64,000 nt of DNA, taken from assembly GCA_004356105.1 (NCBI GenBank), contig SMYC01000016.1, forward strand, positions 891 through 64,890, given 5' to 3'. Below, piece after piece: positions 2,292-55,759 of the stretch (its first letter is position 1; every line of letters begins with the position of its first letter). The position numbers were made by a program, and so were the translations under genes. The notes under the pieces were generated by a model. It saw only the letters and a list, made by a program, of their open reading frames with translations, did not search any database and was not told the origin of the DNA. The stretch is from Acidobacteriota bacterium (lineage in GTDB: Bacteria; Acidobacteriota; Vicinamibacteria; Marinacidobacterales; SMYC01).

Positions 2292-3172
2292 GGCGAGCCG
2301 TCCGGTTCGACAATGGAAATCAAATATTGTCCGTACTCGCTTTCGGCGTGGGCCTCGCCGAGCTCGCGTAGCGCTTGGGCGTCGATGAATCCCATACGAT
2401 AAGCGATTTCTTCAGGGCAACAGATTTTGAGTCCCTGGCGCTGCTCGATGGCCTCGATGAACGTCGCGGCCTGAAGGAGCGACTCCTTGGTTCCGGTATC
2501 GAGCCACGCGTAACCGCGGCCGAGAGTCTCGACATGTAGCTCGCCTTCGTCCAGATAAAGCTGATTCAAGTCCGTGATCTCGAGCTCGCCGCGCGCGGAC
2601 GGTTTCAGCGCCGAGGCATAATCCACCACCCGCTCGTCGTAGAAATAGAGACCGGTGACGGCGTAGTTCGACGTGGGATTTTCGGGTTTTTCTTCGAGGC
2701 CTATGGCTTGGCCGTCACCATCGAACGTGACCACACCGTAGCGCTCCGGATCGCGCACCCAATAGGCGAAGATGGTAGCCCCCGAGCTGCGCTCCGCCGC
2801 GGAGCGCAAGTACCGTGTGAGCTCATGGCCATAGAAGAGGTTGTCTCCCAGGACGAGTGCCGCGCCCTGGCCGTCGATGAAGTCGGCGCCGATGATGAAG
2901 GCTTGGGCCAACCCTTCGGGGCGCGGCTGTACGGCATAGCGGATCCCGATGCCGAGCTGGCTTCCATCGGCCAACAGGTTCTCGAACAGGGGCTGATCGT
3001 GCGGGGTCGTGATGACGAGGATGTCCCGAATCCCCGCGAGCATCAATGTGCTCAGCGGGAAATAGATCATGGGCTTGTCGTAGACGGGGAGGAGCTGTTT
3101 GCTCACCACCGTCGTCATGGGATAGAGACGGCTCCCCGAGCCTCCGGCGAGGATGATGCCTTTGGTAATCAT
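2288..3172 (-). CDS. rfbA: Glucose-1-phosphate thymidylyltransferase
   Basis: [20 protein letters not shown]...[30 protein letters not shown] is a canonical RmlA N-terminus. The protein is 294 aa. Confidence 0.9.
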
Positions 3173-3232
3173 CGCGGTCCTTGCCGTGTCGGCGTCGGTC
3201 CGGCGCCATCGCTTCTAACAGTCGCTGCGGTG

Positions 3233-3649
3233 TCAGTTTTGGCTCGCGTCGACGTAGGGACCCTCGATCTTAATTTGCCGAAGTGATTTGCGGTCCAACT
3301 CGGTCTCTCCGGTAGGCAGTCCGTTCAATTTGAAGAAATAAGCGATGATATCGATATACTCGCGACGCTTGAGCCGGCCGGGATTGTCCTCGGGCATCGT
3401 CGAGCGTACGAACTCCACGAAGTCGTTGACGTTTTGTCCGGACCAGCCCTCCAAGTAACCGCCATCGCTGAACTCCTCGGGCTGGTGACACACCATGCAC
3501 GCTTCGCCGAAAAATTTCTCGCCTCGTTCGGCTTGGGCGTCGGTATAGACGCCGGCTTGTACCGAGGTCGGGCCGTCCTGGGCCGTGAGCACTTGGGCCG
3601 CGGCAACGATGACGGCTAGAACAGATAGGAAACAGAAAAGTCGCTTCAT
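3233..3649 (-). CDS. Secreted class-I c-type cytochrome
   Basis: It has a signal peptide (MKRLFCFLSVLAVIVAAAQVLTAQ) and a single CMVCH haem-binding motif. The SD GGAG lies 8 nt upstream of the ATG at 3649. Confidence 0.75.
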   Translation of the reverse strand: MKRLFCFLSVLAVIVAAAQVLTAQDGPTSVQAGVYTDAQAERGEKFFGEACMVCHQPEEFSDGGYLEGWSGQNVNDFVEFVRSTMPEDNPGRLKRREYIDIIAYFFKLNGLPTGETELDRKSLRQIKIEGPYVDASQN

Positions 3650-3722
3650 TCTTTGCTCCGACAGATTCACCGCGCGAAGGATAGCATACCAGGCGTCAGC
3701 AGAGCTTCCTCGCCCTTACACG

Positions 3723-4145
3723 CTACTCGAGCAGGCTCTCGGCGACGTCCGAGAGCTCGACGACCTCGGTCGCGTCTTCCTCGAGTCGAGAGAGGAGCCA
3801 CTTACCATCGATGCGGATCATGAGCACATATTGCCGGGTTTGGGCGACACGGCGGTTGCCGAACGCCCCCCTCTCGCTGCTCTTCTGGAAATGAACCGCC
3901 TCGAGCACGACGAGATTCACTTTGTCCTCAGCGGCTCGCTCCGACGATTCGAGCTTGTGACTGACGGCGACGATGTTCCCCTCGATGTGGCGAAAAGACT
4001 TCTTCTTGCCGAGCTCGAGCGCTTGTTTATGTGCCTCGTCTCGATAAGCCCGAAACGCCTCGGCCATCGGTCCGAAATAGTCGACCACTTCCCGCACAGC
4101 GGTTGCGGAGGCAAAGATAATGAACAACCAGAGCAGCTTCTTCAC
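3723..4145 (-). CDS. Hypothetical secreted protein with an N-terminal signal peptide
   Basis: The 140-aa ORF begins MKKLLWLFIIFASATA and has coding-like composition. No motif was recognised. Confidence 0.45.
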   Translation of the reverse strand: MKKLLWLFIIFASATAVREVVDYFGPMAEAFRAYRDEAHKQALELGKKKSFRHIEGNIVAVSHKLESSERAAEDKVNLVVLEAVHFQKSSERGAFGNRRVAQTRQYVLMIRIDGKWLLSRLEEDATEVVELSDVAESLLE

Positions 4146-5311: not shown

Positions 5312-8992
<3,681 letters not shown>

Positions 8993-9147
8993 ACCTGTCG
9001 TTCTAAGTTGATAGCAACTTCACCCTCGAGACGCAAGCTCTGTGCGCGCAACGGTTTGGTTGGACCATCCGATAGCCCCTCCGTCAGGGCCAACGGACGC
9101 CTCGCATTGGGTCGAACGGCCGTGATTGTGATAAGTTCCGGACCGCT

Positions 9148-10407
9148 TTGAAGATCCACAACCGCGTCGCGATCGGGCTTCTCGCCGGCGTCCTCGTCGG
9201 TGTCGTGGCCGGCCCGAGCGCCTCGGTCCTCGAGCCGCTAGGGACGCTGTTCATCAAGCTCATCCGCATGGTCATCGTTCCGCTCATTGCCTCTTCGCTC
9301 ATCATGGCCATCGCGGGTCTCCCGGGCCGGGGCTCGCTCGGGCGCATGGGTGTGCGTGCCGTCGGGTTCATCATGATCAGCCTCTTTGTGGCCCTATGTA
9401 TCGCCATTGCGGTGGGCCAAGTGATCCAGCCTGGGAAGATGCTCTCCTCGGAAGCGCGGAGCGCGCTTATCGATGGCAAAGAGATCCCGGTCGTGGATCC
9501 CAATGCGCCGAAGCCATCGGTCGTCGATACGATCGTCGAAACGATTCTTTCTATTGTGCCGAACAACCCGATCCGTGCAGCGGCAGAAGGCAACGTGCTG
9601 CAGATTCTGCTCGTGTCGATTTTGGTCGGTCTCGCTGCGAGCGCGCTTCCGGAAGATCGCCGCAAGCCGTTGGTCGAGCTTGCGAGAAGCGTCGCCGAGA
9701 CGCTCTTCAAGGTGACGGGCTGGATCCTCGAGCTTGCGCCGTTCGGCATCTTTGGACTCATGGCGGCAGTCGTGGGGCGCTCGGGACTGTCGGTGCTCCT
9801 CAGCCTCTCGGCCTATGTCGGCGTCGTCTTGCTCGCCCTTGTATTGCATATCGTCCTCGTCTACGGGGTGATGCTTCGCGTCGTGGCGCGCCAGAGCCCG
9901 AAGCGCTTGGTTGCCGCCGCCAAACCTCCTCTTCTCATCGCCTTCGCCACGTGCTCGACGGCCGCGGCACTTCCCGTTTCCCTGTCGACGATGCAGAAAG
10001 GGATGGGGATCTCCGCGCGCGTCGCGAGCTTCGTTCTGCCGCTCGGTGCCTCGATCGGTCGTGACGGAAGCGCCATGTATCAGGCGATCTCGGTGATGTT
10101 TATCGCGCAGGTCTACGGCGTCACGCTTGGCGCCCAGGATTTGGGGACGCTCATCTTTATCGCGATGCTCTCGGCGCTTGCCGTTGCTCCCGTACCGGCC
10201 GCGAGCTTCGTGAACTTGACGATAATTCTTGCCGCGCTCGGTTTGCCTCTCGAAGGCGCCGCCCTCATTCTCGGTGTAGAGCGGCCGCTCGATATGGCGC
10301 GAACGTCGACTAATCTCATCGGGCACCTCGTGAACGCGAGCTATGTCGCGGCCGCGGAAGGCGAGATCGACGTGACCGCGAAGGATGACGTCGAGGTCGT
10401 GGCGTGA
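9148..10407 (+). CDS. Dicarboxylate/amino acid:cation symporter (DAACS family, GltP/DctA-like). The start is TTG.
   Basis: The 419-aa polytopic protein carries DAACS motifs (FIKLIRMVIVPLI, GASIGRDGSAMYQAISVMFIAQ). Confidence 0.85.
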   Translation: MKIHNRVAIGLLAGVLVGVVAGPSASVLEPLGTLFIKLIRMVIVPLIASSLIMAIAGLPGRGSLGRMGVRAVGFIMISLFVALCIAIAVGQVIQPGKMLSSEARSALIDGKEIPVVDPNAPKPSVVDTIVETILSIVPNNPIRAAAEGNVLQILLVSILVGLAASALPEDRRKPLVELARSVAETLFKVTGWILELAPFGIFGLMAAVVGRSGLSVLLSLSAYVGVVLLALVLHIVLVYGVMLRVVARQSPKRLVAAAKPPLLIAFATCSTAAALPVSLSTMQKGMGISARVASFVLPLGASIGRDGSAMYQAISVMFIAQVYGVTLGAQDLGTLIFIAMLSALAVAPVPAASFVNLTIILAALGLPLEGAALILGVERPLDMARTSTNLIGHLVNASYVAAAEGEIDVTAKDDVEVVA

Positions 10408-24719: not shown

Positions 24720-24781
24720 CTGATACATGAGGATAGAGAGACTGGCGATCGACGACCGGTGACTGCTACGATGCGGGTGTC

Positions 24782-45990: not shown

Positions 45991-47145
<1,155 letters not shown>

Positions 47146-47154
47146 GCAATCTGG

Positions 47155-47216
47155 GAAATATTAGTAATAGCGATCAATATTAAAAAGCGTAACGCAAAGG
47201 CGCAAAGAAGAGCAAA
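47155..47216 (+). repeat. Dispersed ~50-bp motif, copy 1 (AATATT..CGATCAATATTAAAAAGCGTAACGCAAAGGCGCAAAGAAG). It is the left inverted boundary of the ASST island.
   Basis: It matches the reverse complement of 49283-49352 over about 55 bp and resembles 55506-55556 / 55628-55697. Confidence 0.8.
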
Positions 47217-47264
47217 GTTGGATTCTAAAAGGGCGCTCGCTCGTTCGAGCCATTGTCCGCGAGG

Positions 47265-47579
47265 CTAAAATTCGCTCCGCCGAGGCTTTTTGTGGTGACG
47301 CCGTCGACGACGGGGACTGGGTTCGTTCATCGTTTCGAGGCGTTCGGGATCGAAGCCCACTGCCCAAAGCGTACTTGCGACGCCATAGACGATGTGCCCG
47401 TTAGGCGGGTAGCGTGGGCTGCTGCCGCCGGAGACGAGGACCTTCTTCTCTTCGCTTGATAGCTTGAGCTTCGTGTCGCGAGCGCGATACACCTCGCCCA
47501 TACCACTGCTCCGATGGGCGCGAGGATCTCGTAAGCTCCGAGTCGGGTTCCCGATGGGAGGGCCATTCACGTTACTCAC
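47265..47579 (-). pseudogene. Internally deleted relic of a Ser/Thr kinase / TolB-propeller gene
   Basis: One frame reads MALPSGTRLGAYEILAPIGA. It continues in another frame as GMGEVYRARDTKL (kinase Gly-loop / VAIK region), followed directly by a propeller-like tail. The catalytic domain is missing. Confidence 0.5.
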
Positions 47580-49110
47580 TGTTTGAAATCAGGTCTGCGA
47601 GTCCGGGGTAGTCGATTGGGTATTTGTTCGCACGATACAGGGTATGCGGAGCGTCGACTTCGTTCTTGTAGACGTATTCCCAAACGATATCGCCGGATGG
47701 CGTGACTTCACGCAATTTGGCGCCGGCGCCTTGATTGATCAGCGTATTTCCGTTCGGCAGGCGCTGAGCGCCCGAGATGTACCATGAGAAGAACCGTTCT
47801 GGCGGCTCGGGGTTGTATGCCCAGACCAGATCTTTGGGGCCATACGGCATGCCGTCTAGTGCCTCGTAGCTGCCGTCTGGATTCACGTCTGGTGTGAACT
47901 CGACGACGGTCGAATACGGCCGCGAATCATCATCGCCATTGTTGAATATCAATATGTTCCCAGCGCCCGGAAGGCCCGGGTGGATCCACTGCACGTCGTG
48001 CTGAAGGAAAAGAGTGCGATCGTTTTCGCTGCCGCGGTCGTAATTCGCTGGGTTACCCCATCGATACAACAAGTCACCGCCCTTGCCATAGCGACCACCA
48101 GAGTGCCCAGCGGATTGCTGTGGCGAGGTGCTGTGATCGATGATCAGGATTTCACTCATCGATCGGAAAGACATAGCGATTTGATCCAGCTCCGGGTTGT
48201 AATCAAGGGCGTTGGCATGGGTCCAGTCGGCCGACACGGTTCCATCATCGGAGTTCTGCCGAAACACATTGATATTGAGATGCTCGGGATGGTCAGCCAC
48301 AACACCGTAGTTGGATTTCCCTGGGTCGAAATCTTGAATCAAGTGATGCCGGATACTCCACTCCCAGACGACATCCAGAGTGTACGGATTGACCTCGATG
48401 ACGCCCTCGTACCAGAACTCACCGTTTTCCGCGACATGTTCAGGATCACGCCCCTGAGAGACAGCCTCGTCCGAGGTCACTTTTTCCCACACGAGCGTCA
48501 GAACATTGCCGTTATCCAACTTGACGACATCATGATGATTTATGTAATTGTCGGTGTTCAGGTTGATGCGCCATACCAGTTCACCCGACGCCGTATATTC
48601 TTCGATACAACCTGTCCTACCGCCCTGGGTGAAGCCTTTCGGACGGCCATTGCTAGACACCAAGCGGTGGCCATTCGGTAGCAATTGGGAGTAGGAGGGG
48701 TAGTAATCGCCTTCAAACGTAGCCACGATCTCTTTGGCGTCGTTGATCAGAAAAGACTCTTTGACGGCGCTTGGCTCAATGAGCACGTAGCCAGGTGAAA
48801 CACGATCCCAATCTGTGTCGACCAGATCCCGGTCCGCACCTATGGCGAGTCTCTTGACGTTATTTTCAGGCATTTCACTGATTTCGGTCCCAACCGGACC
48901 TGCCATGCCACCGTTTGAGCTCGGCATATTCTCAACACCACAATCCGAGGTAACGGTCATTGTCGATCGGTAAATCGGACGCAATGTCGGCGCATCACTG
49001 CCGGCTGCACCTTCCCGCTCGTCATTGCCCGAATTCACGCCACAGCCGCCGGCGATCGTCGCGATCCAGATAATCGTTACAAGTAGCAGTCGAAGTTTGT
49101 TCGCACTCAT
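47572..49110 (-). CDS. Arylsulfotransferase (ASST)-family beta-propeller lipoprotein
   Basis: Lipobox IAGGC. The repeated LPNGHRLV / NGNVLTL / NGNTLI blade motifs and HHDV / HANA histidines are typical of ASST-like proteins. Its GC content is visibly lower than the flanks. Confidence 0.6.
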   Translation of the reverse strand: MSANKLRLLLVTIIWIATIAGGCGVNSGNDEREGAAGSDAPTLRPIYRSTMTVTSDCGVENMPSSNGGMAGPVGTEISEMPENNVKRLAIGADRDLVDTDWDRVSPGYVLIEPSAVKESFLINDAKEIVATFEGDYYPSYSQLLPNGHRLVSSNGRPKGFTQGGRTGCIEEYTASGELVWRINLNTDNYINHHDVVKLDNGNVLTLVWEKVTSDEAVSQGRDPEHVAENGEFWYEGVIEVNPYTLDVVWEWSIRHHLIQDFDPGKSNYGVVADHPEHLNINVFRQNSDDGTVSADWTHANALDYNPELDQIAMSFRSMSEILIIDHSTSPQQSAGHSGGRYGKGGDLLYRWGNPANYDRGSENDRTLFLQHDVQWIHPGLPGAGNILIFNNGDDDSRPYSTVVEFTPDVNPDGSYEALDGMPYGPKDLVWAYNPEPPERFFSWYISGAQRLPNGNTLINQGAGAKLREVTPSGDIVWEYVYKNEVDAPHTLYRANKYPIDYPGLADLISNSE

Positions 49111-49282
49111 ATCTCACTTTGCTCAGCGAAATTGTCCAAGTAGTCGGCCTCACTTGGGACATTTTCGAATCGAACAATATAGGATCTCCACCACCCCAAC
49201 AACCCTCACGCCGACGAAGCACGAGAAGGCCATTCGCCCCAAGCCGCCCGAGACCCCCTATTATTCCGGAAGAGACTTCTTT

Positions 49283-49352
49283 TCTTTCTTTTTTTCTTTG
49301 CGCCTTTGCGTTACGCCTTTTTTAACATTGATCGTTTTTATCAATATTGTCC
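49283..49352 (-). repeat. Dispersed ~50-bp motif, copy 2 (inverted relative to copy 1). It is the right boundary of the ASST island.
   Basis: The + strand reads CTTTGCGCCTTTGCGTTACGCCTTTTTTAACATTGATCGTTTTTATCAATATT. Confidence 0.8.
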
Positions 49353-49358
49353 GGGGAT

Positions 49359-51680
49359 CTACGTGCGCACGTTGAAGAGCCCATATAGCGCCGCGATGCT
49401 GAAGAGCACGTTGGGGGCCCAGGCAGCCAAGACGGGTGGAAGGAACGCCATCTCGCCCATGAAAGCGAACACGCGGGTCGTCACGTAATAGGCCAAGCCG
49501 ATCGCGATGGCAATTCCGATGCCGTAGAGTGCGCCTTTTTTTCCCGGGCTAAACGAGAAGGGTATCGCGATGAGCGCCATTACCATCGCGGCTAGCGGGA
49601 AGGAGAACTTTGCATGTTGGGCCACGCGAAGGGGGACGACGTCATAGCCTGCCTGCTGCAAATCGTCGACGTAGCGGGTCAGCTCCATGTAGGTCATCTG
49701 ATCGGAGCGCTTGACCTCCTTGACGAAGTAAGACGGTGGCTCCATGTCGTGGATGAGGAGGGTCTCGAAGCTCTCATGCTTCCCGCCTTCGACGAAATTG
49801 CGCCTCCATCCCCGGGAGAAAATCCATGCGCCCTGCTCCGACGCCCATTGAGCTTCTTGCGTATAGAGACGTTCGGTGATGGTGAATGGGTCGGTCTGAA
49901 ACTTGTAGACCGCGAGGCCGCTAAACTTCTGCAGATTCGAATCGTAATAGGCGTAGTTGTAGAGCTCTTGCCCCTCTCCCATCATCCATTGACGGTTCAA
50001 GACATTGTGGGTCTGGACCGGGCGGTTCTTGATCTCGTCGCGAAGCTCCGCCGCGCGGCGATTGGCGTAGGGGAGCCAATATTCTTGGAGCGCGAAACAG
50101 CCCGCGCTCACCATGATTCCTATCAAGATAACGGGCACGGATATCCGGTAGAGGCTTATTCCCCCGGCTTTCGCCGCCGTGATCTCGCTCGTCTTTGTCA
50201 AGATGGCGAAACAGACAAGGGTCGCCATGAGGGTTGCGAGAGGCAACATGTGAAAGAGAATCTGCGGCTGGGCAAAAGCGAGATATTGAAGAACGAGCGT
50301 TCCCTTTATGTTGTGCTCGAATGCATCGGCGATCACATCGATGAGCAGACCGAGGATGTAGACGCTCACGAGTGCTACTAGTATCAGTAGAAAGAAACGC
50401 GCGAACTCGCGACCGATATAGCGATCGAGCGTGTTCGGGAAGCGCAAGCTTATCCGTGGGACGCGGACCACGACGATGGTGCGGTCGGGTGTGCTCGCTC
50501 GTCTCTTGCGGAGAGCGTGGAGCTTTACTGCCAGGCTTGGCCAAAGCCTGTCGATCCCGAAAAAACCGGCTCCTTGAGATTCCCGCGCCGCACGTATCAG
50601 GAGCGCTATTGCCATACCGCCGAGAAGGATGTTGGGCGTCCACATCCCGAGAAAAGGTGACAAGCGGCCCGTTACCGCCATGTTCTCGCCAACATCGATG
50701 ATGATGTAGTAAGTAAAAATGACGGCCAGGCTCACGATGAAGCCCCATGAACGACCGTCTCGTCGATTGCTGATGCCGAGCGCGAGGCCGAGCACCCCGA
50801 AAACGAAACAGGCAAAGGGAATCGAGAATTTCTTGTGGATCTCGGTCAGATAGATAGGGAGCTTCGTTTCGGCATAAGACTGACGCAGCTGGCTCAGGCT
50901 GAGCTCGCGTGCTCCCCGCGGCACGTTGATGTCTTCCGGTGGGAAGAAGGTGTGCGTCGGTAGCGGAAGAAAGATCTCCTTCGAGACCTGTCTCTGATAT
51001 TCCGCTGGCTTGCGATGCGAGACCTGATGCAGCTCAGCGTCTTTCAGGTAAAACGTCGCCGTCCGCGCCTCGGCGTCGATGAGGAGCTGTCCCTGGCTGG
51101 CGAAAGTCACGCGCGGAGATTGGGGCTCCGACAAGTCGGCAAGGATCACGTTCTCCCAGTAGCCCACGCCCGTCGGCGTGTCGAGCACCAGGAACATGAG
51201 ATTCGGGAAAAGCCGGTCGTAGAACACCCGCGGCCGGACCTCAGTGCCCGCTTGGGACGTCAGGATCTTGAAGAAGAGCTGGCGGACGTGCTGATTCGAG
51301 TCCGGCAGCACTTTAATAATGAGGTAGGATGACGCTCCCCAGGCGATCGTGGCCGCCACCAATATTGGGATGAGCAGCCGGTACAGACTCACGCCGCTCG
51401 CCCGCATCGCGATGATCTCGCTATCCGCGGCGAGTCGTCCTAGTGCTATGAGTACCCCGAGCAAGAAGCCCATCGGGATGGTCAAACAGAGGACGCTCGG
51501 GAGCAGGTGTAACAGGATGCTGAGCGTGTCCGCCAATGACGCCGATTGGCTCACGATCCTCTGGGCGAAGCGCAGGATCTCGTTCAGCAGGATGACGAAG
51601 GTAAAGACGCCTATCCCCAAAATAACGCTCGGGAACACTTCACGCAGGACGTAGCGGTCGAGGATCCGCAGCATGTTCAA
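49359..51680 (-). CDS. lptFG: Fused LptF-LptG lipopolysaccharide export permease (two YjgP/YjgQ modules in one 773-aa polypeptide)
   Basis: The N-terminal module starts MNMLRILDRYVLREV. The second module starts LRFPNTLDRYIGREFARFFLLILVAL. Each has the six-TM-plus-periplasmic-domain layout, and the reading frame is continuous. Confidence 0.75.
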   Translation of the reverse strand: MNMLRILDRYVLREVFPSVILGIGVFTFVILLNEILRFAQRIVSQSASLADTLSILLHLLPSVLCLTIPMGFLLGVLIALGRLAADSEIIAMRASGVSLYRLLIPILVAATIAWGASSYLIIKVLPDSNQHVRQLFFKILTSQAGTEVRPRVFYDRLFPNLMFLVLDTPTGVGYWENVILADLSEPQSPRVTFASQGQLLIDAEARTATFYLKDAELHQVSHRKPAEYQRQVSKEIFLPLPTHTFFPPEDINVPRGARELSLSQLRQSYAETKLPIYLTEIHKKFSIPFACFVFGVLGLALGISNRRDGRSWGFIVSLAVIFTYYIIIDVGENMAVTGRLSPFLGMWTPNILLGGMAIALLIRAARESQGAGFFGIDRLWPSLAVKLHALRKRRASTPDRTIVVVRVPRISLRFPNTLDRYIGREFARFFLLILVALVSVYILGLLIDVIADAFEHNIKGTLVLQYLAFAQPQILFHMLPLATLMATLVCFAILTKTSEITAAKAGGISLYRISVPVILIGIMVSAGCFALQEYWLPYANRRAAELRDEIKNRPVQTHNVLNRQWMMGEGQELYNYAYYDSNLQKFSGLAVYKFQTDPFTITERLYTQEAQWASEQGAWIFSRGWRRNFVEGGKHESFETLLIHDMEPPSYFVKEVKRSDQMTYMELTRYVDDLQQAGYDVVPLRVAQHAKFSFPLAAMVMALIAIPFSFSPGKKGALYGIGIAIAIGLAYYVTTRVFAFMGEMAFLPPVLAAWAPNVLFSIAALYGLFNVRT

Positions 51681-51854
51681 GTCTAGCCGGATGTCGGCAT
51701 GGAGCTCATCTTTTTACAAAGTAGCATAGGCGGGTAGCTTTCTTCCACTGCTTCAGCATCTTGGGGTAAATCATTGAACGGTCTACTATATCTTGTTGTT
51801 TTGCCTGGGCTGGGCGCGAAACCTGTGCTAAGCTTTCCACCTTCTGGGGTCAAA

Positions 51855-54800
51855 ATGAGGCTTGAGCGAGTCGACATCACGGGTTTCAAGAGTTTCGGCG
51901 AACGGGCCGAGCTGACGTTTCACAAGGGCGTTACGGCCATCGTTGGGCCGAACGGCTGTGGCAAGAGCAACATCGCTGACGCTATCGGCTGGGTTCTGGG
52001 CGAGCAGAGCGCCAAGAACTTACGCGGCCAGAAGATGGAGGAGCTCATCTTCAACGGTAGCGAGACACGGCCGGCGCTGTCGCTCGCGGAAGTGAATCTT
52101 CGGGTCTCGAACGTAAACGTGCCCGTGCCCACGAAAAAGGGCGAGACCGAGAATAACAAGAAGAGCTCGAAACGGGGTGAAGTGCTCGTCACCCGGCGCC
52201 TCCATCGCTCGGGCGAGAGCGAATATCTTCTCGACGGCAAAGCCAGCCGCCTCCGGGACGTCCAGGACCTTTTCATGGGGACGGGCGTCGGCTCGAAAGC
52301 TTACGCCATCATCGAGCAAGGAAAGATAGGGCTCATTCTCTCCAGCAAGCCGACCGACCGGCGCGCCATCATCGAGGAAGCCGCCGGCATCACGAAGTAC
52401 AAATCGCGGCGCCGTGCGGCGGAGCTCAAGCTCTCGGCTGCCCAGCAGAATCTTTTGCGCGTCAACGACATCGTGTACGAGATCACGCGGCAGATGAGCT
52501 CTTTGAAGCGCCAGGCCGGCAAAGCTCGCCGTTACAATCGTCTCCGAAAGGCGATGGATCGTCTCGAGAAAATATTTTTCGTCAAGCGCGCGGAGCTACA
52601 GGAGACAACGCTCAAACACTTCCGCGCGCGCCTCGCCAAAATTTCCGACGAGGAACTGCGTCGCTCGACGAGTCTCACCATTGCCGAGGGCTACCTCGAG
52701 CGAACGCGTCTCGCCCAGGCGGATGGTGAAGTTGTTTTGACAGATGCGCGCGAGGCTTTGCATCAACTCGAGCTAACCATCGAGCGTCTCGACCAATCTA
52801 TCGTGCGCCACAAAGGCCAGCTCGTGGAGCTCGACAAGCGACGCGCCCAACTCGAGACGGAAATGAAAGAGCTCGATGCCCGTCGAGGACCGGTGCTCGA
52901 GCAGCTCCAAACACGTCAAAAAGAAGAAACGGCGCTCTGTGGGGATCTCGAAGGGCGGGAAGAGCGGACGCAGGAGCAACAGGGGCTTCTAAAAGAGGCG
53001 AGCCTGTCCCTCGCGGAGCTCGAGTCTAAAATCGAAGAGCGCCGCTCCGAGATCGTGCATCGCATCAGTAAGATCGCCGCTTTGCATAATTTTCTTCAGG
53101 GCGTGCTCGCGAATGGAGACAAAGTCTCGGCGGAGCTCCTCAAGCTCTCGGAGGAGGAACGTGAAGTCGGGGCCGAGCGGTCACGTCTCGTATCGATGCT
53201 CGGCGAGACCAAAGGTGAGCTCGACGCGCAAGAAAAAACGGGGGCAAGGCTCGCCGATGAGCGCACCGAGCTCGAAGCAAAGGCGTCGGCCGCACGAGAG
53301 CAGCTCGAGGCGCTCGACACGCGCATGGCTTCTGACAAGGAAAAGCTGTCCGGGCTTTCGGCTCGGCTGACATCGCTCCAGGAGCTCGTTTCGGCGCGGG
53401 CCCATTTCGGAAGCGGGGCTAGGCTGCTTTTGTCTCGCGGGGCGGCACACGGCGTTCGGGTGAAAGGCTCCGTTGCGGACGCGCTCGAGGTCGAAGAGCG
53501 TTTCGAGCGTGCCGCAGAAGCATTTTTCGACACGGCGCTCCAGAGAATCCGGGTCGAGAACGAAGACGACGTCCGTCGCGCCCGTGAGCTGCTTCAAGAA
53601 GAACAGGATGCGGAGCGTTCCGAGCTTCTCGTCGAATCCCTGCCATGCTCGCCTCCTCCCGATCTCACGCCGGTAATTTCCACACTTCGAAAGCGAGGTC
53701 TCTCCGGGATCGTTGGCCGGTTGAGCGAGTTCTTGAGCTGGACGTCGGACGCGGCGCCTCTTCCCGACGCGATCGTCGTCGAGAATTTCGAACAGGCTCT
53801 CAGCTGTTATCGGGAGGAGCAAGCTTCTTACGTCACTTTGGGCGGTGAAGTCGTGACCTCTTTCGGGGTCATCGGCATCGGTCCCGGCGGAGCGAGCGAA
53901 GGTCTGCTTCAAACCAAACGCGAAATTCGTGAGCTCCACGAGGCGGTCGCGGAGGCAAAGGGTCAACTCGAGGCGGCTACCGGACGCCGCGGGGGGCGAA
54001 AAATCGAGCTCGAACGTGTGTCGAGTCGGCTTCTGGCCGTACGCGATCAGCAGCACGATCTCGAGAAAAAACTGGTGGGCCTCGAGCACAAAAGAGACCA
54101 GCTCTTCGAGGAGAACGAACGGCTCGAGCGTAAGCAAGATGTTCTAGCCGGGGAGCGCGCCCGCGCGGAATCTGAAAAGGCAACGCTCGCGGCCAAACGG
54201 ACCGAGATGGAATCTACCCTCGACGTCGAGGAGAAGCAGAAAGCGGGCGCGGAGGACAGTCTCGACACGTCGCGCGGCGAGCTCGCCGAGCGGCGCACGA
54301 GTGTGGAAGCGCTTCAAGTCCGTGCCGCCGAAGAAGCCTCGAGGCTCGCCGCGCTGAAGGAACGCCGCGACGCGGTGCGCGTCGACGTGCTGCGTCTCGA
54401 GGAAGGTGCCGCGGAGCTCGGGTTGCGCCTCGAGCGGAACGGCCGAGAGCAAGAAAGCTTGACGAGTCGAAAAGCGCAGCTCGGCGAAGCCGTCGTTACG
54501 GCGGAGTTGGAGCTGAAGTCCTCGGTCGCATCGCGTGGCGTCAAAGAAAACCTCGTGCGCAAGCTCGAGACCGGTGTGGTCGGTTTACGCGAGCGGGTCG
54601 AGACGACACAAACCGCTCTCAAGGCGCGGCGCGGCGAGCTCGAGGAAGTGCGCGAGCGACGCTCGCACGAGGCCGTCGAGGTCGCCAAGGAAGAGTCGGA
54701 GCTCAAACACTTGAAGGAGAGCTGCGAGAGTGCTTTTGCCATGTCGCTTCAGGACACGGCCGGTCTCCTCACCCCCGTGGAGCTTCTGCGCGACGATGAG

Positions 54801-55481
54801 GAAATCCAGGTGGAGCTCAAAGAGCTCAAGACGAAGATCGATGCTATCGGCACCGTCAATCCGATGGCGGACGAAGAATATCGCGAGCTCGAGACACGCC
54901 ACGAGTTCATCACGAAGCAGCGACAAGATCTCCTCGACTCCATCGAGAGCACCGAGACGGCGATTGGCCGTATCGATCGCACATCCCGCCAGCGTTTTCA
55001 GGAAGCCTTCGATATTATCAATCGAGAATTCGCCATAACGTTTCGCCAGCTCTTTGGCGGTGGTAGCGCCGGCTTGCGGCTCGTGGACGAGCAGAATGCT
55101 CTCGAGAGCGGCATCGACATCATCGCTCAGCCGCCCGGAAAGACCCTCCAAAACGTGCTGCTATTGTCGGGCGGCGAGAAAGCAATGACCGCCATTGCGC
55201 TTTTGTTCGCGATCTTTCGCTATCGGCCATCGCCTTTCTGTCTCCTCGACGAGGTGGATGCACCGCTCGACGACGCCAATGTCGGCCGCTTCGTCAACAT
55301 GCTGAGCGAGCTTCGAGATACGACGCAATTCATCATCATCACCCATCACCGAAAAACGATGGAGACGGCGGACCACCTCTTCGGCATCACGATGGAAGAG
55401 CCAGGAATCTCGAAGCTCGTTTCGGTCAACTTCGTCGAAGGAGACGAGGCTCCAGCCGAAGCGTTGGCCTCGACACCGTAG
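51855..55481 (+). CDS. smc: Chromosome partition protein SMC
   Basis: MRLERVDITGFKSFGERAELTFHKGVTAIVGPNGCGKSNIADAI (Walker A), long coiled coils, a hinge, and the C-terminal LSGGEKAMTAIALLFAI...LLDEVDAPLD. Confidence 0.9.
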   Translation: MRLERVDITGFKSFGERAELTFHKGVTAIVGPNGCGKSNIADAIGWVLGEQSAKNLRGQKMEELIFNGSETRPALSLAEVNLRVSNVNVPVPTKKGETENNKKSSKRGEVLVTRRLHRSGESEYLLDGKASRLRDVQDLFMGTGVGSKAYAIIEQGKIGLILSSKPTDRRAIIEEAAGITKYKSRRRAAELKLSAAQQNLLRVNDIVYEITRQMSSLKRQAGKARRYNRLRKAMDRLEKIFFVKRAELQETTLKHFRARLAKISDEELRRSTSLTIAEGYLERTRLAQADGEVVLTDAREALHQLELTIERLDQSIVRHKGQLVELDKRRAQLETEMKELDARRGPVLEQLQTRQKEETALCGDLEGREERTQEQQGLLKEASLSLAELESKIEERRSEIVHRISKIAALHNFLQGVLANGDKVSAELLKLSEEEREVGAERSRLVSMLGETKGELDAQEKTGARLADERTELEAKASAAREQLEALDTRMASDKEKLSGLSARLTSLQELVSARAHFGSGARLLLSRGAAHGVRVKGSVADALEVEERFERAAEAFFDTALQRIRVENEDDVRRARELLQEEQDAERSELLVESLPCSPPPDLTPVISTLRKRGLSGIVGRLSEFLSWTSDAAPLPDAIVVENFEQALSCYREEQASYVTLGGEVVTSFGVIGIGPGGASEGLLQTKREIRELHEAVAEAKGQLEAATGRRGGRKIELERVSSRLLAVRDQQHDLEKKLVGLEHKRDQLFEENERLERKQDVLAGERARAESEKATLAAKRTEMESTLDVEEKQKAGAEDSLDTSRGELAERRTSVEALQVRAAEEASRLAALKERRDAVRVDVLRLEEGAAELGLRLERNGREQESLTSRKAQLGEAVVTAELELKSSVASRGVKENLVRKLETGVVGLRERVETTQTALKARRGELEEVRERRSHEAVEVAKEESELKHLKESCESAFAMSLQDTAGLLTPVELLRDDEEIQVELKELKTKIDAIGTVNPMADEEYRELETRHEFITKQRQDLLDSIESTETAIGRIDRTSRQRFQEAFDIINREFAITFRQLFGGGSAGLRLVDEQNALESGIDIIAQPPGKTLQNVLLLSGGEKAMTAIALLFAIFRYRPSPFCLLDEVDAPLDDANVGRFVNMLSELRDTTQFIIITHHRKTMETADHLFGITMEEPGISKLVSVNFVEGDEAPAEALASTP

Positions 55482-55505
55482 CGGGCTATCCGAAACTGCA
55501 GGCTG

Positions 55506-55697
55506 GAAAAGATCAATAATAAAAAGGCGTAACGCAAAGGCGCCAAGCCGCAAAGGTCCGTATACCAAAGGTCCGTATCCCACCCTAAAGATTACGTACC
55601 GATCCAAAGAGGGCCTTCGAATCTTCTTCCTTTTCTTTCTTTGCGCCTCTGCGGCTTTGCGCCTTTGCGTTACGCTTTCCTTAATATTGATCTTTTC
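55506..55697. mobile_element. MITE-like 190-bp element. Two ~50-bp inverted copies of the dispersed motif (55506-55556 and 55628-55697) flank a 70-bp core that contains a CAAAGGTCCGTAT direct repeat.
   Basis: The outer ends AAAAGATCAATAATAAAAAGGCGTAACGC ... GCGTTACGCTTTCCTTAATATTGATCTTTT are near-perfect inverted repeats. No coding capacity. Confidence 0.6.
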
Positions 55698-55759
55698 GAG
55701 GTTCGGCGGCGCGACGATTGCGTCGTCCCGGAGGCGCGGCATACACTGCGGGTCTCTAG

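Follow-up and report, generated by a model that had tools for sequence, protein, structure and literature searches.

The question raised by this locus is what kind of sequence fills the gap between smc and the CYTH-domain gene in the window (the whole stretch of 64,000 nucleotides of acidobacterial DNA that was analysed), whether it has moved as a unit, and whether the cell makes any use of it. The initial annotation placed there a 190-bp MITE-like element, built from two inverted copies of one motif, and the gene context of this placement is supported by Pfam. Repeat detection confirmed the two inverted copies, whose arms of ~54 nt, interrupted by one small indel and 90–91% complementary, consist of a 33-nt block (55524-55556 and 55646-55678, 91% complementary) and a 20-nt block (55503-55522 and 55681-55700, 90% complementary). 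From GATC to GATC the element measures 182 bp, or 196 bp in profile coordinates, which is typical of the pairs of its family. The two arms, called C and D, lie 89 nt apart in the register of the repeat detection, as opposed to the 70 bp given earlier, because the octamers are register-shifted. The tandem direct repeat that had been described in the core is also present, as two 15-nt copies that are 93% identical; the same 15 nt occur singly in four of the related loci (designated here by L numbers), namely L021, L041, L043 and L044, and the duplication is therefore specific to the lineage of the window. The features are collected in Table 1.

Table 1. Coordinates of the element, of the related arms and genes in the window, and of other DNA found in or near related elements
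Feature	Location	Strand	Description
Arm A	47153..47215	+	8 nt past the metK stop codon (47143-47145); nhmmer match 47167-47213
A-B interior	47216..49287	-	104-aa ORF (47265-47579; 78 aa long in public gene calls) and ASST-like gene (47572-49110; Pfam Arylsulfotrans, E = 7e-22)
Arm B	49288..49352	-	Between the LptF/LptG stop codon (49359-49361) and the ASST-like start (49110), facing the ASST-like gene; nhmmer match 49337-49294
smc	51774-55481		Stop codon 55479-55481
Outer left extension GGCTATCCGAAACTGCAGGCTGGAAAA	55484..55510	+	Begins 3 nt past the smc stop codon
Left arm, copy C	55503..55556	+	Terminal box GATCAATAATAA (AT-rich; GATC 55511-55514), 17-mer GCGTAACGCAAAGGCGC, then octamers; nhmmer match 55504-55554, E = 2.8e-14
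15-nt tandem duplication CAAAGGTCCGTATAC / CAAAGGTCCGTATCC	55551..55580 (55551-55565 / 55566-55580)	+	At the arm/core border; direct repeat detected
Non-palindromic core	55557..55645	+	Pyrimidine tract ~55618-55641 adjoins the right-hand octamers
Right arm, copy D	55646..55700	-	Octamer array (three CTTTGCGC-type octamers, 55639-55669, 8 nt spacing), 17-mer, terminal box (GATC 55689-55692); nhmmer match 55699-55648, E = 7.7e-15
CYTH-domain gene	from 55760/55772
ISL3 copies, OZ240210.1	L023 3265-4982; L027 2231-3947; L029 3584-5301		96–99.8% identical to each other
IS200-like copies	L027 4177-4778; L041 ~9310-9905; also L011, L014, L024, L025, L032		589 bp, Y1_Tnp; ends GTCCCACTCGGGG...GCGCTCAGT
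Group II intron	L082 1693-3170	-	Reverse transcriptase/maturase TIGR04416, 321 bits; domain V-VI RF00029, 34.7 bits, just under the gathering score
GxxExxY-family gene	L049 8608-8994	-	TIGR04256, E = 1e-36; enclosed by a 672-bp arm pair (8497-9168)
HNH unit copies	L008 4926-6076; L043 2034-2829; L115-L118 ~2680-4100
Second short repeat family, without the motif	L101 3088, 3264, 697(-), 9548(-); L058 2975; L068 5440; L095 389(-); L105 7882(-)		Ends in the box CTGACGGGTTAGAGC(C)TAG (...AAAATCCTCGSTTCTGACSGGTTAGAGCCTAG)

Within the window the motif is confined to four sites. The 41-mer quoted in the initial annotation occurs once (55507-55547), the 18-mer GGCGTAACGCAAAGGCGC occurs four times when up to 3 mismatches are allowed, against 0.13 expected, and a profile search returned exactly four arms, whose spans are the nhmmer matches of Table 1. 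Further copies, for which a genome-wide repeat search had been suggested, were indeed found in related DNA, since the profile built from these four arms detected 185 arms in 1.03 Mb of retrieved sequence, almost all of it from ‘Ca. Marinacidobacterales’ genomes and metagenome contigs, with 41 distinct short arm pairs of 82–310 bp. A scan of one genome per species, covering 185,579 species with the pattern GATCAATN{5,11}GCGTAACGCAAAGG, gave 36 loci, nearly all of them from four ‘Ca. Marinacidobacterales’/Acidobacteria MAGs: ~27 in MAG OZ240210.1 (9.2 Mb), four in OZ253507.1, seven in Acidobacteria bin61 and one in CBDCYI01, two being probably chance matches. The same pattern gave 70 further loci in metagenome contigs. 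As the DNA examined was reached by way of an exact 21-nt pattern, this sample is biased toward well-preserved arms. Where neighbouring arms are separated by less than 400 nt, 49 pairs were convergent, none divergent and one tandem, from which it follows that the inverted pair of 82–310 bp is the unit. Each family arm presents, in order, the box GATCAATATTAA, a few A/G residues, the nearly invariant 17-mer GCGTAACGCAAAGGCGC, in-phase octamers CAAAGNCG (0–5 per arm, mode 3) and a purine tract.

The elements are non-coding. No conserved ORF was detected in them. The one start that recurs, MRGNALVAK..., opens frames whose length varies between 8 and 100 codons and which contain frameshifts; on these grounds, and because conservation of the DNA is limited to the first ~10 codons, a core-encoded small protein (MRGNALVAK...AFEQ) was rejected. 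Searches of plasmid and phage collections returned no similarity, and no literature on repeats of this acidobacterial lineage was found. The family is thus described here as an undescribed set of dispersed non-coding inverted-repeat elements of one uncultured marine Acidobacteria group.

The evidence that such pairs were copied as units comes from the subfamily to which the smc–CYTH element belongs. The window, which belongs to none of the retrieved genomes, is ~90% identical to OZ240210.1 over their overlap, and the C-D subfamily occurs at three unrelated loci of that genome (L005, L021, L041). These three and the window have in common the core (...GGTCCGTATCCCACCCTAAAGATTACGTA...GATCCAAAGAGGGCCTTCGAATCT...), the differences between the left arm (AATAAT, GCGCCAAG) and the right arm (AATATT), and an outer extension of 30–45 nt (GGCTATCAGACAAGAAACTGGAAGCTGAAAAA); the occurrence of this last stretch before GATC at three separate loci indicates that the outer left extension is part of the subfamily and not local flank. 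Because the same asymmetric arms and core recur at three loci, the C-D subfamily must have been copied as a unit, and a 200–250 bp asymmetric sequence dispersed to unrelated loci is the defining mark of a repeat that is, or once was, mobile. Copying of the complete inverted pair, to many intergenic positions, took place in the ancestors of this acidobacterial group.

Most copies, including that between smc and the CYTH gene, are now vertically inherited. The syntenic regions of four related genomes (L041-L044) were reached through homologues of the CYTH protein, and four species (window, L041, L043, L044) have orthologous copies at the smc–CYTH spot, their cores being homologous; orthologous copies persist across species that are ~9% diverged. 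The core of the window element is 73–90% identical to those of L021, L043 and L044. In L041, which is the locus in OZ240210.1, an ISL3 fragment and an IS200-like element interrupt the copy, and in L043 a 480-bp insert does so; these inserts measure 0.5–0.9 kb and leave the neighbouring genes intact. In L042 the element is lacking and the spot reads ...GAAACTAAAGCTTCGAAGATCGAGG..., in which the residue GAAACT..AAGATC corresponds to the left tip of the element. A neighbour-joining tree of LptFG and smc groups the window with L042 and leaves L041, L043 and L044 outside, so that the absence in L042 represents a loss. Presence/absence differences between related genomes therefore exist, comprising this loss and the filled and empty alleles at L033/window 24720-24735, L019/L010 and L011/L012. 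The same-species contigs L037-L040, at 99.9% identity, carry the same element as the window and are too similar to it to inform on mobility.

Copies also change in place. Over 11.6 kb, the only indel between the window and L037 is one extra 8-nt octamer in arm A of the latter (window 47186-47203; L037 ~836-846); an octamer indel between contigs 99.9% identical indicates that octamer number varies within the population, and the octamer arrays of orthologues show length differences of 8 or 16 nt. Relics of internal deletion were found at L088, L069 and L042, where the seemingly empty alleles retain the outermost bits of the element, and these are therefore symmetric internal deletions of the palindrome, not virgin sites.

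Taken together, the element is probably a copy of a lineage-specific, non-coding, foldback-type dispersed repeat that spread by a mechanism without target duplication, and it would be, as part of this reading, a dispensable passenger in the 3' region of smc. The unit comprises a subfamily-specific outer segment, the box GATCAATATTAA, the 17-mer GCGTAACGCAAAGGCGC, 0–5 octamers CAAAGNCG, the purine tract and a short non-palindromic core, followed by the mirror-image arm. A putative copying enzyme, acting in trans, would recognise the terminal box, the 17-mer and the octamer array and would leave no detectable target duplication. The copies now change through slippage of octamers, through deletions inside the palindrome and through capture of mobile DNA in their AT-rich and purine-rich parts. 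Neither the window nor ~1 Mb of related loci yielded the copying enzyme. Against the foldback-repeat reading, the termini differ by subfamily and target duplications are lacking, unlike in most characterised bacterial MITEs; at least two of the seemingly empty alleles (L042, L069) are deletions, and the conservation of the 17-mer, described below, weighs against it as well.

The likeness to known repeats is partial in each case. BOX elements of Streptococcus pneumoniae have the structure boxA-boxB(n)-boxC, with a 45-nt middle module. The family resembles them in being modular and intergenic, with a variable internal short repeat between conserved ends that pair, and in having no known mobilising enzyme; unlike in BOX, the repeat that varies in number is 8 nt long and belongs to each arm, in place of a 45-nt middle module, and there is no sequence similarity. 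With the foldback (FB) elements of eukaryotes it has in common long arms that consist in part of short tandem repeats of variable number, an unrelated short middle and occasional foreign DNA between the arms, although FB elements belong to another domain of life, the present family is much smaller and no associated transposase is known here.

The best-surviving alternative, which we nonetheless regard as unlikely, is a classical MITE, that is, an internally deleted derivative of a DDE-type IS whose transposase is encoded elsewhere and whose short target duplication has been hidden by divergence. Bacterial MITEs include Correia/NEMIS of Neisseria, RUP of Streptococcus and Nezha of cyanobacteria. 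The family is like these in its size of 80–310 bp, terminal inverted repeats, non-coding intergenic copies, hairpin transcripts and differences between related genomes; it departs from them in its much longer arms (50–110 nt), tandem octamers and heterogeneous outer ends, and no target-site duplication or parent IS was found for it. Accordingly, the designation MITE-like holds for small size (182 bp, family 82–310 bp, below the usual limit of ~600 bp), the lack of a transposase gene and of coding capacity, long terminal inverted repeats (~54-nt arms) and multiple dispersed intergenic copies (185 arms), and fails on the target-site duplication. An IS transposase with terminal inverted repeats matching AAAAGATCAATA, as had been proposed, and more generally an autonomous IS with matching ends, were not found in the window or among ~1 Mb of related loci, which is a fraction of genomes of 9–10 Mb and leaves some room for the MITE reading. 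As no enzyme with matching ends was found, mobility is read from the distribution of the copies and not from observed movement. An IS with inverted repeats matching GATCAATATTAAGAAAAGCGTAACGC, together with short duplications at recent insertions, would make the element a classical MITE.

The junctions speak against this alternative. In four comparisons of filled and empty sites (L011 vs L012, L019 vs L010, L033 vs window 24720-24735, L096 vs L069) no direct repeat was seen, at a flank identity of 85–92% at which a duplication of 2–3 bp could escape detection. At L011/L012 and L033/window, 7–13 nt of the empty site are replaced, L019/L010 is a plain junction, and at L096/L069 the outermost bits of both ends are still present in the L069 allele; clean empty sites are those of L010, L012 and window 24720, at 85–92% flank identity only. 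In several copies TA stands on either side (...GAGCTA|GATC...GATC|TAGCTC...), recalling families that duplicate TA. However, similarity between copies continues for 25–55 nt past the GATC box, in subfamilies such as ...CTAGCAGCTAATTCTGACGGGTTAGAGCTA|GATC and ...AACCCGCCAAAATCGCGAATTCCGTTCACGTTTCGGAGCAA|GATC, so that the flanking TA is probably part of the arm. The insertion of elements into pre-existing palindromes, which would likewise let arm similarity enter the flanks, is unsupported at L011/L012, where the empty site contains no palindrome. The most extreme flank similarity, 66 nt, was recorded at L085, at a contig start, and is probably an assembly fold-back artefact. A second short repeat family, without the motif, ends in the box CTGACGGGTTAGAGC(C)TAG (Table 1), and as this box is common to that family and to the outer end of one motif subfamily, the outer parts are mosaic.

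Arm pairs lying 1–5 kb apart could have held the missing transposase; they contain ISL3, an unrelated gene or ORFs with no family match, none of which is a cognate transposase. Pairs ~2 kb apart in OZ240210.1 hold a 1718-bp ISL3 element (Pfam DDE_Tnp_ISL3, E = 1.8e-70; NCBIfam transpos_ISL3), which by its position between many arm pairs resembles an autonomous partner and yet has no similarity to the arms. It carries its own 25-bp inverted repeats (GGTTCTCCTGTCGTTTC... and GCCTCTCCTGCCATTTC...), which align locally to the arms no better than shuffled sequences do (of 500 shuffles, 341 and 497 score at least as high as the left and the right repeat, respectively), and its own 8-bp duplications (TCTTTTTC, CTCTTTTC), which flank the IS and not the element and fall in the purine tract at positions that differ by copy. 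On account of its own ends and duplications ISL3 was rejected as autonomous partner or as the source of the MITE and is read as a nested secondary insertion, and from the varied positions of the duplications the motif elements are a hot spot for ISL3. An attractive reading is hereby corrected, as neither ISL3 nor a cargo-carrying MITE explains the motif pairs.

Other kinds of DNA are nested in the same way. The IS200-like element always lies directly after TTAAT, and one copy sits inside a motif arm, between TTAAT and ATTGATC. A group II intron abuts the arm octamers at the same position in five bin61-type loci (L082, L004, L036, L056, L089); several bin61-type contigs break at the intron/octamer junction. 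The GxxExxY-family gene of L049 is enclosed by an arm pair. The HNH-type gene (~360 aa), which one source calls an HNH endonuclease, matches DUF222 weakly. It is preceded by a conserved leader of ~330 nt with TTGACA and TATAAT-like boxes, and its 694 homologues include several in each acidobacterial genome; gene and leader look like an independent selfish unit. At L008 this unit begins inside the purine tract, as other nested inserts do. As a mobilising enzyme for the arms the HNH/DUF222-like gene of L008 was rejected, since full-length homologues at L116-L118 have their own leader and no surrounding arms.

A less probable alternative is that the element is a REP/BIME-like repeat used by the host, whose arms bind a protein or whose hairpin marks a transcript end, and which is kept by selection and not by ongoing transposition. 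This reading draws on the conservation of the arms. When the window copy is compared with its orthologues in L043 and L044, the two 17-mers agree at 33–34 of 34 positions (97–100%), the whole arms at 85–93% and the core at 73–88%, compared with 75–79% identity at 4-fold degenerate sites of smc between the window and L041, L043 and L044; in a second orthologous pair, L054/L112, the arm differs at 1 of ~38 positions and the whole element is 87% identical. The persistence of orthologous copies across species and the position of all three window sites, which begin 3–10 nt past a stop codon, point in the same direction. It is mainly because of this arm conservation that the element is not treated as simply dead, and a 17-mer so well conserved suits a constrained sequence, be it through a host function or through gene conversion, better than it suits a dead passenger. 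Conversion among the numerous copies could equally account for it, so that the arm sequence is either under selection or homogenised by this process.

The predicted structure of the transcript does not strengthen the case for host use. The long hairpin that had been proposed is real in silico: the segment 55495-55710 folds as one long hairpin well below shuffled sequences, at -95.1 kcal/mol as RNA vs -55.6 +/- 4.4 for dinucleotide shuffles (z = -9.0) and at -51.8 kcal/mol as DNA (z = -7.2). Single arms, on the other hand, fold as DNA no better than shuffles (z = -0.64, -0.24 and -0.61), with arm B at -2.27, and the alignment of four copies gave no useful covariation and no compensatory changes (covariation term +1.6). 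A role as terminator of smc or as leader of the CYTH gene, as suggested earlier, found no support: the stem is not followed by a U-tract, since the TTTT next to the right-hand GATC is itself base-paired in the stem, and the element is deleted in L042 and split in L041 and L043 by inserts of 0.5–0.9 kb with the flanking genes retained. The scan for intrinsic terminators (GC-rich stem-loop followed by a U-tract) gave no site on the + strand downstream of smc, on which ground that identity was rejected, its sole match being a weak site on the opposite strand. A known RNA family was rejected likewise, as Rfam gave no match over the whole window; at E up to 10 there were two matches, both far below their gathering scores. 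Any read-through transcript would carry a long hairpin at the smc–CYTH spot, and nothing shows that the cell uses it.

The comparison with REP sequences leads to a similar result. A REP/REPIN unit is itself an imperfect palindrome of 20–40 nt, and the gene for a RAYT (a Y1 transposase) is flanked by such repeats. The family shares with REP/REPIN/BIME sequences the inverted doublets, the lack of target duplication, the long orthologous persistence, the post-stop position and the mosaic arrangement with short modules. It differs in that its single arm is not palindromic, for which REP identity was rejected, and in that the only Y1 transposase seen, in the DNA retrieved, is that of the IS200-like element with its own hairpin ends; this enzyme was rejected as a RAYT because of these ends, its TTAAT target and its occurrence also in contexts without the motif. 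REP units bear a tag, GTAG or CGTC at one end (as given in PMC3733652), and neither is present in the aligned arms, which end in GATCAAT... and ...CAAAG.

Equally improbable to us as host use, the arms might be maintained recognition sites, bound by a DNA-binding protein of their own or by a recombinase or nuclease of an unusual type, and the elements preferred landing pads that channel selfish DNA into harmless intergenic sites. The 17-mer and octamers are near-invariant across species whose silent sites are more than 20% different, and at least five unrelated kinds of DNA (ISL3, IS200-like, group II intron, HNH gene, GxxExxY gene) have entered the elements.

The second arm pair of the window, A and B, had been taken for a 2.2-kb version that carries cargo. 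That A and B form a matched inverted pair is correct, and they have in common ~24 extra outer nt (GGGAAATATTAGTAATAGC|GATC vs GGACAATATTGATAAAAAC|GATC) not present in C and D; the mobilisation of a passenger is weakly supported. The metK–LptFG slot that they occupy has a varied content. The 104-aa ORF, the ASST-like gene and both arms are found in the window and in the same-species contigs. The closest relative, L052 (96–98% identical), keeps the ASST gene and arm B while ~64 nt replaces arm A and the small ORF; L042 has an ASST remnant and arm A and lacks arm B; in L043 an HNH-unit pseudogene lies between the same two arm ends; L041 has ISL3 copies; and L044 has 100 nt between metK and LptFG, with no motif. 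The neighbouring gene (window 49359-51680, - strand) encodes LptF and LptG as one protein of 771–773 aa with two LptF_LptG stretches, an arrangement kept in all five related genomes. A composite transposon that would have brought the small ORF and its ASST-like neighbour to this spacer, proposed for the A-B pair only, is very unlikely: the inverted arms with their private outer nucleotides do bracket 2.1 kb that is absent from L044, but the ASST-like gene and the 104-aa ORF occur at this one slot only among all retrieved loci, L052 has the ASST gene and arm B but other sequence in place of arm A and the ORF, the arm ends of L043 enclose different DNA, and other genes and ISs demonstrably enter such elements. 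Because ISL3, the IS200-like element, the intron, the GxxExxY gene and the HNH unit do so, capture of DNA by an old element accounts for the A-B pair better than does a MITE pair moving a passenger.

For now, the smc–CYTH element counts as a small dispersed repeat of an ordinary sort, the MITE/BOX/foldback-like kind, although its family had not been described before. With it, a repeat family of uncultured marine Acidobacteria, whose genomes measure 9–10 Mb, acquires a name and a defined anatomy. The family also explains the frequent breaks of metagenome contigs at these sites in this group; at L085, the first 88 nt of a metagenome contig (1-88) repeat, in reverse complement, what comes after the element, probably an assembly fold-back artefact caused by the hairpin. 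If the conservation of the arms reflects protein binding, the family would lend itself well to the study of how a repeat can persist and at the same time attract mobile DNA.
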